Of a stretch of 64,000 nucleotides of DNA, positions 13,920-34,350 are shown piece by piece. Within the stretch, counting starts at the first letter, position 1. Every line of letters begins with the position of its first letter. The translations under genes were made by a program, and so were the position numbers. Origin of the DNA: Candidatus Bathyarchaeota archaeon (GTDB lineage Archaea; Thermoproteota; Bathyarchaeia; Bathyarchaeales; Bathycorpusculaceae); assembly GCA_963715865.1 (NCBI GenBank), contig OY970280.1:2112001-2176000 (forward strand). The letters run 5' to 3'. The notes under the pieces were generated by a model. That model ran no database searches. It saw only the letters and a list, made by a program, of their open reading frames with translations, and had not been told where the DNA came from.

Positions 13920-14321
13920 ATGGAATTCGTTTCTTCATGGATAAGAGGAGACATCATAATCCGTTTCCCAACAGCAGCTGAACTAGCCAAAAAGACCCCG
14001 CTAAGCATTGCATTTCCAACTGACCCTTCGGTTAACGCTGAACTAAAAATTAAAGAACACTATGTGGACCAGTTATCCATAATTGCTGGAATAAAACCCG
14101 CTTCCGCTGATGAGCAAGAAAAAGCCATATCTGAAGTTTTCAAAATGCTGCTAATGTTCCGCTCAGCAAACAGAATCGAAGGCAAAATCATCTCAAATGA
14201 CCTAGAAAAAAGAATCGAAGAACTAGAAAAAACGGCAAAAAACCAGGGCAAACTTGTTGAGCAGATAACTGGATTTTTGTTTAAACCAAAAAGCCAAAAC
14301 AAGAAAGCCCAAGCTAGCTAA
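13920..14321 (+). CDS. Hypothetical protein with C-terminal coiled coil (true start possibly upstream)
   Basis: 133 aa ORF; LEKRIEELEK coiled-coil segment. Confidence 0.55.
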   Translation: MEFVSSWIRGDIIIRFPTAAELAKKTPLSIAFPTDPSVNAELKIKEHYVDQLSIIAGIKPASADEQEKAISEVFKMLLMFRSANRIEGKIISNDLEKRIEELEKTAKNQGKLVEQITGFLFKPKSQNKKAQAS

Positions 14322-29114: not shown

Positions 29115-29236
29115 GCCGGGGTGGCAGAGCGGTTAATGCGCCGGCCTCGAGATCTTAGAAAAGAGGGCTAAGCCAGAAGGCAAGTTAGCCGGTGGGCCTT
29201 GTGCTCGCAGGGGTTCGAGTCCCTTCCCCGGCGCCA
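29115..29236 (+). tRNA. tRNA-Ser(CGA) with 35-nt intron at 37/38 (29152-29186)
   Basis: GCCGGGG/CCCCGGC acceptor stem; anticodon loop CT-CGA-G|intron|A; long variable arm; GGTTCGAGTCC T arm; CCA encoded. Confidence 0.93.
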
Positions 29237-31184
29237 CTTCAATGTTAGCATGAATACTCGAATCGCGCGTTATTTGCTTTTTTTCTTTCATTTGTCTTTT
29301 TTTCTTGACGTAGACTACTGCTGCTGCAAAAGTTGCGACTAAGAGAATTAACAAGTAAACGTTTTGAGCTGACAATCCGCTGCCGCCAGTTGCTTTATTA
29401 TTGTTCTCGGGTGGTTGAGTGGTGTTATTTGGAGTTTGGACTTTCAAATCTTTGAAAATTACGGCGCTGTCTACGTTATTTGTTATTAACATTGTCATTT
29501 CATTGCTGTTCAGTGTATCGTATGGAGTTGCCATGCTTTCTATGAGAGTCCCATCTGAGTTGTATAAATTAGCGGTTATTCCGTTCTCTGATATGCTTGC
29601 TGTAACCTTATACCAAGTGTTTTCTGTTATGCTCTCAGTAGCGTTCATGAAAGCGGTGTTGCTTCCATTATCTTGTCTTATGGTAGACACGTCATCATCG
29701 TTTAGTCCTCTAACGTTTAAGCTGTAATTTCCGTTATTATTTTGAAGGATAAAGCAAAACTGATTGTTTATTGTTTGATTAAAATCGTCTGGCAATCTTA
29801 GAGGCGCCATATCTGTCGGCACATTTATTGGTACTGTTATTGTCTTCTCAGGTATCTCTATTGTTTTTGTTTGCCTGTTTCTTCCAGTGATTATTGTAAG
29901 TTCGCTTGCTGGTATTGTTACTGTCTTTGTTGGAACGTTCGATACTGTATGCCCTGCTTGTAATACAATGAAATCGTAGCTAAATGAAACATTTGCCCCC
30001 AAGGAGATACTGAGAAAATCGTTAACCCCCTGCATTGGGCGAGTTACATAAGCTGCAGCGCTTGCTTGCCCATATATGTAGTTATAGTCGTCAGTCTGAA
30101 ACTGAACAAATGATGCAGGCCCGACAAAAACTGTTAGTGTTTCGCTGTCGGCACCAGCATAATTTGAAGCACCGCTCCAGCTTGTTGTAATGTAGTATGT
30201 GCCTGCTGAGGTGAAGTTCCAAGTCATCATGTACCTGCCAAAATCATCTGTAACTGTTCTGAAGTAATCATAGGAAGATCCGGCACGACTACTACTAACG
30301 TATATAGAGACGTTTTCCCCTGAGTACGGTGGTGAAATTGAGCCTGAAATCGTAAGAGCCCGGGTATTTTCTTCAACGCTGGATGGTCCTTGGGACAGAT
30401 TTACGGTTATGGAAGAAGGGAGTAAAGAAGTGTCCAAACTTGATGAAACCTGTGCTGGTGATGATTTCTCAGTGTTCTCAAGGGAAATAATCACAGGTAT
30501 CGCGTTAGCAAGGAGTTCAGATTGGTCACCAACCTTCCAGTCCGCTTCAGGGGTGGCTTCAGCTGTCCAATAAGTTTTGTTGTTGTACTCGAAACTGGTG
30601 GGCGTCAACAACGAAGTGTGATAGATGGGCGTGTAGGGTAGGTAAACTCCAACATTCATGTGACCGGGGTTTATCCCTGTGTAGTGAATTAAAACAACAT
30701 CTAAGCCTCCTGCCTTCATGATGGAAGCCGCAAGTAGTGACAGCGCAACGCAATCTCCAGAATTGTCTACAAGGGTTTCAATAGGATATTTGGGGCTGCT
30801 AATATTATATGGGATTTGATGAACCAGCGTTAACACGGCATCAGCAAACTGTTCGTTGCTGTAGGGCAGATTGCGAGTAATTTTTTGAATGCTCTCCGCG
30901 ATGGGTTCGACAGCTTGAGGCGTTACAAATTTTGCGTAATCACTGTCGCAATTTACTGTATGGCTTATGTTACTATAATAGTCGTAGAGTGAAGGCGGTT
31001 CAGAAACATACAACTTTTGGTTGAGGAGCCCGTACTGAGCTTGAAAAATATAGGTTTTTTCGTAGGTGCCTGCTATAGAGGTAGGTGTTATGAAAACTAG
31101 TAACAAAATGCTAATGAGAAGGACGCTGGCTTTCAGGTACTTAAAACTCATACAAACCCAGCAAGTACTTTTTTTTACTATCAT
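29133..31184 (-). CDS. Secreted/membrane-anchored transglutaminase-like protein with Ig-like and beta-sandwich domains (3' end uncertain, overlaps the tRNA)
   Basis: N-terminal signal/TM; GDCVALS...GHMNVGV (Cys-His); Ser/Thr/Asn-rich beta domains (GTYYITTSWSG); C-terminal TM followed by KKKR. Confidence 0.75.
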   Translation of the reverse strand: MIVKKSTCWVCMSFKYLKASVLLISILLLVFITPTSIAGTYEKTYIFQAQYGLLNQKLYVSEPPSLYDYYSNISHTVNCDSDYAKFVTPQAVEPIAESIQKITRNLPYSNEQFADAVLTLVHQIPYNISSPKYPIETLVDNSGDCVALSLLAASIMKAGGLDVVLIHYTGINPGHMNVGVYLPYTPIYHTSLLTPTSFEYNNKTYWTAEATPEADWKVGDQSELLANAIPVIISLENTEKSSPAQVSSSLDTSLLPSSITVNLSQGPSSVEENTRALTISGSISPPYSGENVSIYVSSSRAGSSYDYFRTVTDDFGRYMMTWNFTSAGTYYITTSWSGASNYAGADSETLTVFVGPASFVQFQTDDYNYIYGQASAAAYVTRPMQGVNDFLSISLGANVSFSYDFIVLQAGHTVSNVPTKTVTIPASELTIITGRNRQTKTIEIPEKTITVPINVPTDMAPLRLPDDFNQTINNQFCFILQNNNGNYSLNVRGLNDDDVSTIRQDNGSNTAFMNATESITENTWYKVTASISENGITANLYNSDGTLIESMATPYDTLNSNEMTMLITNNVDSAVIFKDLKVQTPNNTTQPPENNNKATGGSGLSAQNVYLLILLVATFAAAVVYVKKKRQMKEKKQITRDSSIHANIEVAPGKGLEPLRAQGPPANLPSGLALFSKISRPAH

Positions 31185-31278: not shown

Positions 31279-31287
31279 TTTAATATA
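31279..31287 (+). promoter_or_regulatory. Putative TATA box of queT
   Basis: TTTAATATA about 25 nt upstream of the aptamer 5' end. Confidence 0.55.
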
Positions 31288-31309
31288 GTCGAGAAGGATA
31301 GTCCTCTGT

Positions 31310-31345
31310 GGTAGTTTCCGTATTTAACCTACCTTAAAAAACCGG
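31310..31345 (+). ncRNA. Candidate class I preQ1 (preQ0/preQ1) riboswitch aptamer
   Basis: GGTAG-TTTCCG-TATTTAAC-CTACC-TTAAAAAA-CCGG: 5-bp P1, U after P1, UAAC before the P1 3' strand, A-rich L3, P2 pairing that overlaps SD GGTGA; directly 5' of queT. Confidence 0.8.
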
Positions 31346-31352
31346 TGAGAAA

Positions 31353-31844
31353 ATGAAACTAAATACCAAAAAACTGACAATTATCGCTGTTTTTGCATCC
31401 TTATACACGGTCGGAGTAGTCTTCTTGGCACCAATAAGCTTCGGTGTCTATCAAGTAAGGTTAGCCGATGCTATGCTTCCACTATCGATGATTTTTGGAG
31501 TCCCAGGTGCATTGGGTTTTAGCTTGGGCTGCATAGTCTCTAACGTTTATGGCGGGCTTGGAATAATTGATGTTGTTGGTGGTGCAGCCGCAAATCTTGT
31601 TGCCTGCACTCTAGCTTGGTATATAGGCGGTAAGGGGCGAGGTATTCAACGATTTCTGGGAAGTATTGTAGAAACAGGAATCGTCACTTTGATAGTTGGA
31701 GGATATCTTTCACTGATATTTCAGGTTCCTGTGGAGGTCGGTCTTTTGGGAGTACTTGTTGGGTCTACAATAGCGATAAACGTTATAGGGTTTCCAATAG
31801 AAGAAGTAATTCGGCGAAGCAAAATTTTTAGAAAATACAGCTAA
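31353..31844 (+). CDS. queT: QueT-family 7-deazaguanine (queuosine precursor) transporter
   Basis: LAPISFGVYQVRLADA, GCIVSN and GIIDVVGG match the QueT signature (ISFGxxQxRxxE...GCxIAN...GxxDxxxG). Confidence 0.88.
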   Translation: MKLNTKKLTIIAVFASLYTVGVVFLAPISFGVYQVRLADAMLPLSMIFGVPGALGFSLGCIVSNVYGGLGIIDVVGGAAANLVACTLAWYIGGKGRGIQRFLGSIVETGIVTLIVGGYLSLIFQVPVEVGLLGVLVGSTIAINVIGFPIEEVIRRSKIFRKYS

Positions 31845-31935: not shown

Positions 31936-32367
31936 ATGTGGGGTCATGAACATAAATGGAAGTATTTCAGGAAAGGAGGACTCAGAATGTGGGTTCTCTC
32001 CATACTTCAGCAGTCACCAAGAAATGGCGCTGAAATAATGGATCAAATTGAAATAGCCACTCAAGGTTGGTGGAGACCGTCCCCAGGCTCTGTTTACCCA
32101 TTGCTTGAAGAGTTGCAAAAAGAGGGAAACATCAAAAAACTCGAAGACGGCAGGTATGAAATCACAGAAAAAGGCAAGCAAGAATTCGAGTGGCCATGGG
32201 GCATGCCAAAAAAGCAATCACACACCGTGGACGAAGTCATAGCGGAGATAAATGTTTACGTTTCGTATCTTGAAGACCTTGCCAAATCAGACAATTCCAA
32301 ACTTGCTCCGTTCTCACAGAAGATCAAAGAATTACAGGCAAGACTCTCAAAAATCGGGACAGGTTGA
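31936..32367 (+). CDS. PadR-family transcriptional regulator
   Basis: WRPSPGSVYPLLEELQKEG, YEITEKG. Confidence 0.92.
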   Translation: MWGHEHKWKYFRKGGLRMWVLSILQQSPRNGAEIMDQIEIATQGWWRPSPGSVYPLLEELQKEGNIKKLEDGRYEITEKGKQEFEWPWGMPKKQSHTVDEVIAEINVYVSYLEDLAKSDNSKLAPFSQKIKELQARLSKIGTG

Positions 32368-32373
32368 TCCAAC

Positions 32374-33402
32374 ATGACTGCAACGCAAGTAGGAACTCCG
32401 TTGTCTTCGGCCATTGTGAAGGTCGAAAAACTCTCAAAAACCTTCGGCAATTTGAAAGCCGTTGACAACGTTAGCTTCGAGATCAAAGAAGGAGAAATTT
32501 TCGGCTTACTCGGCCCCAATGGAGCTGGCAAGACCACCACTATAAACATGCTTACTACTCTGCTCAAGCCTACTTCTGGAGACGCGAAAGTTTGTGGCTT
32601 CAACATACTCAAACAGGCAAACGAAGTGCGAAGAAACGTCGGAGTTGTGCCGCAAGAGTACACAGCTGATGAAGACATGACAGGAAAAAACAACATCCTT
32701 CTCTGCGCCGATCTCTACGGCATACCCAGAAGTGATTCAAAACCACATGCAGAAGAGCTGCTAAAACTGGTGGAGCTTCAAGACGCTGCAAACAAAAAGG
32801 TCAGCACATACTCGGGAGGAATGCGCAGGAGACTGGAGCTCGCATGCGGTTTGATCAATTATCCGAGACTGTTGTTCTTGGATGAACCAACGCTTGGCCT
32901 TGACGTTCAAACACGCACCGCAGTCTGGAAATACATAAAAACGCTGAAAGAGGAATATCGCATGACTCTTTTAATGACAACTCACTACCTCGAAGAAGCT
33001 GACTCGCTTTGCGATAGAATAGCGATAATCGATCACGGCCACATCATAAAAATTGGTTCACCCGAAGAGCTAAAGGAAAGCGTCGGAGGGGACGTAATTA
33101 TTATAGTCATCAAGGAACTGGAGCCGGATATTTCATCCGATATTGCACAGATAAAGTTGGTAAAAGACGTTAAGAAAAACAATAACACTTACCGCATCAA
33201 GGCGGAGCTTGGAGAGGAAGCCTCGCCACAGATCACGGATCTAATTCGATCCAAGGGGCTTCACGTAACGAGAGTCTCGTTAACAAAGCCAACCTTGGAC
33301 GAGGCATACCTAGAATTTACAGGGCGCAGCCTAAGGGAAGAAGAAGTTGACAAGCTCCAGATGTTTCGTCAACGTGTGACTATAAGGAGAGCAAGATCGT
33401 AG
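32374..33402 (+). CDS. ABC exporter ATP-binding subunit (DrrA-like)
   Basis: GPNGAGKTT, YSGGMRRRL, DEPTLGLD, TTHYLEEAD, PTLDEAYL. Confidence 0.93.
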   Translation: MTATQVGTPLSSAIVKVEKLSKTFGNLKAVDNVSFEIKEGEIFGLLGPNGAGKTTTINMLTTLLKPTSGDAKVCGFNILKQANEVRRNVGVVPQEYTADEDMTGKNNILLCADLYGIPRSDSKPHAEELLKLVELQDAANKKVSTYSGGMRRRLELACGLINYPRLLFLDEPTLGLDVQTRTAVWKYIKTLKEEYRMTLLMTTHYLEEADSLCDRIAIIDHGHIIKIGSPEELKESVGGDVIIIVIKELEPDISSDIAQIKLVKDVKKNNNTYRIKAELGEEASPQITDLIRSKGLHVTRVSLTKPTLDEAYLEFTGRSLREEEVDKLQMFRQRVTIRRARS

Positions 33403-33414
33403 AAGTGAAAAGCC

Positions 33415-34350
33415 ATGGACAAGACTGAATCAAAAAAAGAAATGCCATTAGAAGGTCCCACTGTTCAAGAAAAACAAACCGAAGTTTCTGCAGGGAAAGA
33501 CAGAACATTAAGAACCCCTCCGAAGCTTAACAGGAGTCCCCTGCATGGTTTATGGGCGCTAACAAACAGAGACTTGAGAAAGTGGTACACTAACCCAGTC
33601 CAGCTCATTGTGTCGTTAATCCAACCGATAGTCTGGCTAGGGCTGTTCGGGAAAGCCTTGAACTTTGGGTCTTTCATTTCCGGCTCAGGAGCCTCACCAG
33701 CACAACAAAACGCGATTTTGCAGAGTTTTTTCGGCACAACCAGCTACTTTTCATTTTTGGCTTGTGGAATGCTTGCCTTCATAGTCCTCTTTACTTCTGC
33801 GTTCAGCGGAATGTCGGTCGTTTTTGACCGCAGGTTTGGTTTCCTAAACAAGGCATTAAGCACACCAGTGGCACGCGGATCGATCGTAATGGGCAAAATC
33901 CTGCAAAGCGTTGGCAGGTCACTGGTTCAAGCCGCCATAATCCTGGTCATCGCGGTGCTGCTAGGGATGGACACAACTCATTTCACCGTCCCCGGAATTG
34001 CGGGAACATTCGTCGTCATTTTCCTCATGGGCATGGGATTATCCGCGCTGTTCACCATGCTCGCATTAAGGTCAGCTGATTGGCAGACTCAAATGGCGAT
34101 AATCAACCTGATTAACCTCCCGTTGCTATTCGCAAGCAACGCACTGTTCCCGACAAAAATAATGCCAACATGGCTTCAAGACGTCGTAAAGGTCAACCCA
34201 GTCAGTTACGCTAATGACGCGACAAGGCAACTTTTGATAGGCGCGACGGGCATGAACAATCTTCTAGTAGACTTTGCGATCCTCATCGGGTTTGCGGCAA
34301 TACTGTCTGCAGTCGGAATCGTCCTCTCTTGGAAACTCCTCGCCAAATAA
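33415..34350 (+). CDS. ABC-2 exporter permease (DrrB-like)
   Basis: LIQPIVWL, DRRFGFL, ASNALFP, NPVSYA. Confidence 0.9.
   Translation: MDKTESKKEMPLEGPTVQEKQTEVSAGKDRTLRTPPKLNRSPLHGLWALTNRDLRKWYTNPVQLIVSLIQPIVWLGLFGKALNFGSFISGSGASPAQQNAILQSFFGTTSYFSFLACGMLAFIVLFTSAFSGMSVVFDRRFGFLNKALSTPVARGSIVMGKILQSVGRSLVQAAIILVIAVLLGMDTTHFTVPGIAGTFVVIFLMGMGLSALFTMLALRSADWQTQMAIINLINLPLLFASNALFPTKIMPTWLQDVVKVNPVSYANDATRQLLIGATGMNNLLVDFAILIGFAAILSAVGIVLSWKLLAK

Follow-up and report, generated by a model that had tools for sequence, protein, structure and literature searches.

The window, by which we mean the whole stretch of 64,000 nucleotides from a Candidatus Bathyarchaeota archaeon that was analysed, carries a gene whose product matches the QueT family (PF06177), as an earlier note made from the letters alone had proposed (Table 1). 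No other QueT match occurs in the organism's own genome, which consists of a single contig of 2.35 Mb and is 97.9% complete. Downstream of queT, positions 31936-34350 encode a PadR-family regulator, an ABC ATPase resembling DrrA and a permease. On the other side of the gene, a tRNA gene with a 39-nt intron (29115-29233, plus strand) scores 46.6 bits with Rfam and overlaps the 3' end of an open reading frame on the minus strand (29133-31184), which encodes an Ig-like surface protein of 683 amino acids; the last ~30 codons of that reading frame are probably not real. A scan of the whole window with Rfam at the gathering threshold returned three tRNAs and nothing else. The subject of the present analysis is the short leader that separates the queT promoter from its start codon.

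Table 1. Promoter, leader and coding sequence of queT in the window.
Feature	Position	Strand	Remarks
TATA box TTTAATATA of the queT promoter	31279..31287	+	Read directly; a (T/C)TAATATA box is kept in related leaders
P1 5' strand GGUAG	31310..31314	+	Pairs with 31329-31333
L1 UUU	31315..31317	+	UU(U) invariant across alignments; U31315 corresponds to the uridine of L1 that contacts the ligand in preQ1-I
P2 5' strand CCG	31318..31320	+	Invariant in 44/44 type B leaders; same CCG in type A leaders
L2 UAUUUAAC (8 nt), with candidate specificity base C31328	31321..31328	+	Terminal AAC invariant
P1 3' strand CUACC	31329..31333	+	Complement of 31310-31314
L3: UU, A6 and unpaired conserved C31342	31334..31342	+	A6-7 invariant
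P2 3' strand CGG	31343..31345	+	Invariant; complementary to 31318-31320
Shine-Dalgarno GGUGA	31344..31348	+	Ends 4 nt before the AUG; first two G inside P2
queT coding sequence (163 aa)	31353..31844	+	PF06177 match, E 9e-24

The element at 31310-31345 reads GGUAG-UUU-CCG-UAUUUAAC-CUACC-UUAAAAAAC-CGG and is followed by UGAGAAA and the AUG of queT at 31353, so that the entire leader measures only ~43-45 nt. A second reading of the sequence confirmed this layout, the position of the TATA box and the placement of C31328, which directly adjoins the P1 3' strand (31329-31333), as the earlier note had described them. In related leaders the (T/C)TAATATA box lies 22-29 nt 5' of the element, and the spacer between the two varies freely; the transcription start is therefore predicted at P1 or a few nucleotides before it, so that the message would begin with the element, in agreement with what was originally proposed for the box. 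Two peat RNA runs of one study hint weakly that the message does carry the leader and is not leaderless: their contigs span positions 965-1107/1153 at the locus of a relative (L061, 79% identical) and run from inside the element into the coding sequence; these contigs are assembled and carry no start, strand or level, and their lack of cover upstream of position 954 proves nothing. No RNA library was listed as matching the window's own stretch. With regard to translation, GGUGA qualifies as a proper Shine-Dalgarno (SD) sequence because the 16S rRNA of the same genome ends in GGAUCACCUCC, which matches it as expected. Its distance from the start codon had been put at 5 nt and is shortened by one in Table 1.

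The second helix can be drawn in two registers. The contiguous form of P2 (C31318-G31345, C31319-G31344 and G31320-C31343, with C31342 unpaired) fits all 44 related leaders described below, and many variants would extend it by one further pair, U-G or U-A. The alternative, in which G31320 pairs with C31342 and C31343 is bulged, is also conceivable and mimics the P2 of Thermoanaerobacter tengcongensis; only in this bulged register does the A-run adjoin P2, whereas in the contiguous one 1-2 bases ending in C intervene. In either case the earlier proposal that P2 overlaps the SD sequence stands as far as the two G of GGUGA are concerned, and P2 would cover 2 of the 5 SD bases; the register given there calls for a small revision, to G31320-C31343 as in the contiguous P2.

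Taken by itself, the sequence of the window gives few indications of a structured RNA. Minimum free-energy folding of 31300-31360 does not form P1 and yields a z-score of +0.71, which is no more stable than shuffled sequences; such a failure is expected of a ligand-dependent pseudoknot and is uninformative. We also applied a generic preQ1-I-like descriptor, consisting of a 5-bp stem, a loop of the form U...AC, a run of five or more A and a 3-mer complementary to the loop, which matched 3 places in the organism's own genome against 1-5 in shuffled genomes. The single sequence by itself is not above chance. The element nevertheless stands above chance, because one of these three matches is the leader of the sole queT gene and because it is extremely conserved in orthologous leaders.

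For clarity, we refer to the AU-rich queT leader of the window as type B and to the GC-rich queT-leader pseudoknot of other relatives as type A. The type B element, 38 nt in the alignment, recurs in 44 leaders (19 distinct sequences) that belong to one QueT clade, common in MAGs and metagenomes of peat Bathyarchaeia. It precedes the start codon in the ~50 loci that have enough upstream sequence, among which QueT identity falls to ~58%. Between diverged pairs the mean pairwise identity amounts to 93.5% in the element; the 22 nt immediately before it reach 57%, the opening 360 nt of the coding sequence 62% and third codon positions 44.5%. A lack of conservation in orthologous leaders had been named beforehand as a refuting outcome; the conservation observed lies far beyond neutral expectation and does not refute the proposal. 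A covariance model built from the type B element (R1) scores 44-67 bits on the 44 leaders and finds one match per genome. Type B is rare: the class sample contained it in 2 of 151 genomes and the family sample in 4 of 151, to which one further genome (G018) and about a dozen named MAGs are to be added. Three type B queT loci (L046, L051 and P0091) bear the labels of Chloroflexia, Limnocylindrales and Verrucomicrobiae MAGs; in the QueT phylogeny the first two lie within the Bathyarchaeia clade, the QueT of the third is 72% identical to that of the window, and the contigs concerned are probably mis-binned.

Variation among the type B leaders is confined to few positions. CCG and CGG occur without any change, and CGG is always preceded by one or two pyrimidines ending in C. 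L2 follows the consensus UA-N-(A/U)-UAAC, with AAC invariant in 44/44 leaders; its length, which is 8 nt in the window and ranges over 7-9 nt among relatives, bears out the caveat, raised from the start, that this loop is longer than in the bacterial models. L3 consists of UU and A6-7, with an 8-nt insertion in one lineage. As to P1, the outer pair is GC in 13 of the 19 distinct leaders and AU in three, while the remaining three leave it unpaired; one mismatch apart, the inner four pairs do not change, and 95.8% of all P1 cells are paired. Covariation in orthologous leaders, to which the earlier note had looked for support of the fold, is not significant within type B because there is too little variation: a single pair covaries (GC to AU, in three sequences), the same pair is broken in three others, and the observed score is reached by 30 of 500 shuffles. 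For the same kind of reason the P2 pairing gains no covariation support within type B, because CCG and CGG never vary.

The sequence, conservation, position and gene context of 31310-31345, as well as its replacement of another queT leader (see below), are direct observations, and we regard it as very probable that this segment is a functional cis-acting leader element. Two explanations of such an element do not involve a ligand. One is a conserved 5'-UTR element that influences translation or mRNA stability, or that is bound by a protein or small RNA, and this would be in keeping with strong conservation accompanied by almost no covariation, as well as with the weak predicted structure. It is nonetheless improbable, since the element is specific to queT and present in one copy per genome, matches the ligand-pocket motifs of preQ1-I riboswitches in detail, and takes the place of a leader with covarying pseudoknot helices and SD sequestration that is found before two unrelated membrane-protein families. 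The other concerns the DNA rather than the RNA: the inverted repeat GGTAG...CTACC at the predicted transcription start could serve as an operator for a repressor, for which the PadR-family protein (31936-32367), whose gene starts 90 nt after queT, would be a candidate. However, the linkage of the PadR gene to queT is restricted to the closest relatives (QueT at least 85% identical) and is absent at the other element-bearing loci, so that this neighbour is not conserved with the element; moreover, the half-sites lie 14 nt apart and conservation extends over 38 asymmetric nucleotides, including the non-palindromic loop and the A-run. We consider an operator of this kind highly improbable.

The resemblance to known RNAs is closest for the preQ1-I riboswitches of bacteria. 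These form small H-type pseudoknots in which a specificity C lies directly before the P1 3' strand, conserved A's precede P2 and SD bases are located inside P2 (PMC11625349, PMC10622847). The specificity C follows a U in type I and an A in types II and III; types I and III have UU directly behind the P1 5' strand, and in type I a conserved tail C reads a second, stacked ligand (PMC11625349). The type B leaders possess a hairpin P1 of ~5 bp, as in preQ1-I (GGUAG/CUACC), and, present and invariant throughout, the UU after the P1 5' strand, the AC before the P1 3' strand, the A-run before P2, the predicted overlap of P2 with the SD sequence and a tail C as in type I. One part of the pocket differs, in that preQ1-I types I-III have a ligand-contacting A before the P2 3' strand where type B, if its P2 is contiguous, has C. 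In the type III switch of Escherichia coli, an A-to-C change just before the P2 3' strand abolished regulation (PMC10622847).

Among these types, type II, represented by T. tengcongensis queT and Bacillus subtilis queC, shares the most with the element of the window: the layout of an H-type pseudoknot with a 5-bp P1 and a predicted 3-bp P2, a U as first base of L1, a P2 that starts 3-4 nt into the loop, an L2 of the form UA...AC, a C adjoining the P1 3' strand, an L3 that begins UUAA and continues A-rich, the first two SD bases in P2, and the control of queT, which is proposed in the case of type B. The T. tengcongensis loop shows the G-UA...AC pattern as it is found in the window, and the L2 of the T. 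tengcongensis and B. subtilis aptamers measures 4-6 nt. Type II binds preQ0 as well as preQ1. Unlike type II, the type B leader resides in an archaeal host, its L2 is 4 nt longer than that of T. tengcongensis, its P2, CCG/CGG, departs from the consensus in bacteria and one or two C stand between the A-run and P2; in addition, its natural ligand is probably preQ0, as archaea make no queuosine.

The type III switch of E. coli yhhQ (L144, ~14177-14212) controls a 7-deazaguanine transporter at the level of translation, as is proposed for type B, and has in common with type B the UU after the P1 5' strand, a pyrimidine-rich loop start (UUCC...), the AC motif and an SD GG that is paired to loop CC in P2, a pairing that is predicted in type B. 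It departs from type B in its L2 of 3 nt, as against 7-9 nt in type B (8 in the window), in the long variable linker within its L3, and in its first SD base, an A that contacts the ligand where type B has C. Type I, as in Carnobacterium antarcticum, shares the UU after the P1 5' strand and the conserved C in the 3' tail, but has UC before the P1 3' strand where type B has AC. That type B might bind two ligands in the manner of type I would be pure speculation. As for the other two preQ1 classes, preQ1-II and preQ1-III (RF01054, RF02680) gave no Rfam match, and the ~43-nt leader has no room for P3/P4 or for an HLout pseudoknot of 80-100 nt; both were rejected.

A search with the Rfam model of preQ1-I (RF00522), as advised in the earlier note, yielded no match to the element at E<=10 on either 221 nt or 45 nt, that is, less than ~13 bits against a gathering cut-off of 39. 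Over the organism's own genome the same model produced 13 chance-level matches elsewhere, and the queT leader was not among them. We submitted the validated type III aptamer of the E. coli K-12 yhhQ leader (L144:14172-14216; GGGUUCCCUCACCCCAA...AAAAAGG) to RF00522 under the same settings, as a 45-nt stretch at E<=10, and it was missed as well. The negative outcome for the window therefore says little, as the model appears to have low power for short variants. Conversely, R1 did not recognise the yhhQ leader of E. coli and gave nothing but a chance match of 10.8 bits elsewhere, so that neither RF00522 nor R1 links the two.

The genome offers a metabolic context in which a 7-deazaguanine sensor would be plausible. 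It contains ArcTGT (283 bits), and TGT genes lie at G000:C1:1152079-1153050 and 252263-253186, namely ArcTGT and a second TGT-like open reading frame (346 aa, 76 bits). EcfT modules are present, too. In contrast to ArcTGT, neither QueD nor a full-length QueC was found in the genome, the only QueC matches being the 60-residue PP-loop N-termini of other enzymes. Together, the presence of ArcTGT and the failure to find QueD or a true QueC point to an apparent dependence on imported preQ0 for the synthesis of archaeosine, and the gene pattern appears to be that of a preQ0 auxotroph. In such an organism, feedback of preQ0 on its own importer is the expected design, and the choice of preQ0 rather than preQ1 as the effector, already made in the earlier note, proves sensible.

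We propose that 31310-31345, at the start of the queT mRNA, may act as a riboswitch of the translational OFF type and comprise both its aptamer and its expression platform. Its RNA could form a small H-type pseudoknot from P1 (31310-14/31329-33) and P2 (31318-20/31343-45). When a 7-deazaguanine accumulates, it would bind at the junction of P1 and P2 and thereby stabilise the weak, 3-bp P2; the likeliest ligand would be preQ0, the archaeosine precursor that the organism apparently cannot make. A stable P2 would then bury the first two bases of the SD sequence GGUGA and lower the translation of queT, whereas in the absence of the ligand P2 would be open and the transporter would be made. How the RNA would fold, which ligand it would bind and in which direction it would regulate are here deduced from conservation, context and resemblance. 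For the three propositions jointly, a preQ1-I-like pseudoknot, a ligand of the preQ0 type and occlusion of the SD sequence, we have somewhat more confidence than doubt.

The history of the queT leader within Bathyarchaeia adds a further line of evidence. Of the first 29 relatives sampled, 26 have the type A leader before queT; it is conserved as well, is longer still than type B and reads GGCGG-GUGAG-variable-CUCC(C/U)AC-CCG-UU-CCGCC-A-rich-C(C)CGG(G)-A-GUAGGGAGG. All P1 positions of type A are paired (100%) and two of the pairs covary, a fourth pair adjacent to its P2 (CCG/CGG) covaries, and the CUCC(C/U)AC segment, judged by eye, covaries with the SD sequence, with which it forms an SD/anti-SD helix. 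Rfam 15 contains no match to the type A leaders. A model of the motif GGCGG-GUGAG...anti-SD...CCG-UU-CCGCC (R2) detects type A in 94 of the 151 sampled Bathyarchaeia (73 of the 95 genomes of good quality), nearly always as a single copy, and also in other Thermoproteota, including Methanomethylicia. The leader stands mostly before queT, and in one family before an unrelated membrane protein of 233 aa. The loci concerned belong to the Bathyarchaeia family f35 (L117:1501-2267, L125:1501-2258 and L130:1501-2267), where the type A leader is followed by a multi-pass membrane protein of ~233 aa that is not QueT; scans against Pfam and NCBIfam assigned it to no family, and it is a candidate for a new 7-deazaguanine transporter.

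R2 has no match in the two type B genomes of the class sample (G000, the organism's own, and G169), a regular-expression scan of the own genome likewise found no type A, and R1 and R2 do not cross-detect. In the QueT phylogeny the 42 type B genes constitute one clade (100/98), which branches from within the type A genes and whose sisters belong to the same family; type B therefore replaced type A once, in situ, on the same gene. Horizontal transfer of queT together with a riboswitch from bacteria is ruled out by this same nesting of the type B QueT clade within the type A QueTs of Bathyarchaeia. The exchange of leaders on one gene argues for a common regulatory role of the two types. A queT gene of a hot-spring Bathyarchaeia genome (L052:1900-2000; QueT 57% identical) has neither leader; a hairpin GCCUCCGC...GUGGAGGUG would sequester its SD sequence, and may represent a third leader design.

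Both types share the gene, the location at the mRNA 5' end, a CCG/CGG P2, an A-rich L3, a C before P2 and the predicted masking of the SD sequence, and they are colinear from P1 through CCG, the junction, the P1 3' strand and the A-rich loop ending in C to the CGG that runs into the SD sequence. Only type A has the P1 GGCGG/CCGCC with the invariant GUGAG, and its L1 of 12-20 nt holds the anti-SD that pairs the whole SD sequence and is lost in type B. The L2 of type A is UU only, whereas that of type B is longer and ends in AAC; type A also lacks an unpaired C before the P1 3' strand, the C at this place covarying with G5.

This comparison bears directly on a third explanation, according to which the type B leader does sense a ligand but does so without the preQ1-I fold or pocket. 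It could be a trimmed type A leader in which the tail C31342 rather than C31328 acts as the specificity base, it could take up two ligands, or it could respond to some other 7-deazapurine or purine (archaeosine base, queuine, preQ1 or guanine). The descent of type B from ancestors that bore type A speaks for trimming, and the elements kept are exactly those common to both types (CCG/CGG, the A-run and the C before CGG). As the C before the P1 3' strand of type A is paired, covarying with G5, a pocket shared by the two may use the tail C, and type I preQ1-I uses a tail C for its second ligand. On the other hand, the terminal AAC of L2 is invariant in 44/44 type B leaders, which is hard to explain unless it has a role, and it matches the specificity motif of types II and III. 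We judge this third explanation rather unlikely, though it is the strongest of the rivals, and continue to prefer the preQ1-I-like pseudoknot.

From here we can speculate how the preferred structure might have arisen. A GC-rich leader of 60 nt would have been remodelled once into an AU-rich leader of 36 nt, which, adapted to preQ0, would represent the preQ1-I fold for the first time in archaea; type A and the bacterial preQ1-I switches would then have the same pocket architecture (the junction of P1 with a CCG/CGG P2, an A-minor L3 and the tail C), whether by descent or by convergence. We put this forward as a tentative scenario, about which we have more doubt than confidence.

Riboswitches are rare in archaea, the accepted cases being those for TPP and fluoride. 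The literature that we searched for archaeal preQ1 or preQ0 riboswitches contained none, in agreement with the earlier note, to which no described archaeal preQ1 switch was known, and a 2024 review of the preQ1 family names bacterial phyla only (PMC11625349). If our reading is true, the queT leader of the window would be of a riboswitch kind not yet described in archaea and, under the tentative scenario above, it would document natural riboswitch turnover on one gene within Bathyarchaeia. The presence of two leader designs on the same gene in sister lineages provides a natural comparison between a predicted full burial of the SD sequence (type A) and its proposed occlusion by 2 nt (type B), while the differences within the pocket, namely the C in place of a ligand-contacting A and the long L2, bear on how this fold discriminates between preQ0 and preQ1. 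An RNA of 36-40 nt is, furthermore, an easily tested object.

Altogether, if the element senses preQ0, it would show how archaea that are unable to make this precursor control its uptake, and it points to a cross-feeding of 7-deazaguanines in peat communities. The most interesting point, in our opinion, is the link that may thus exist between the archaeal type A class and the preQ1-I riboswitches of bacteria.
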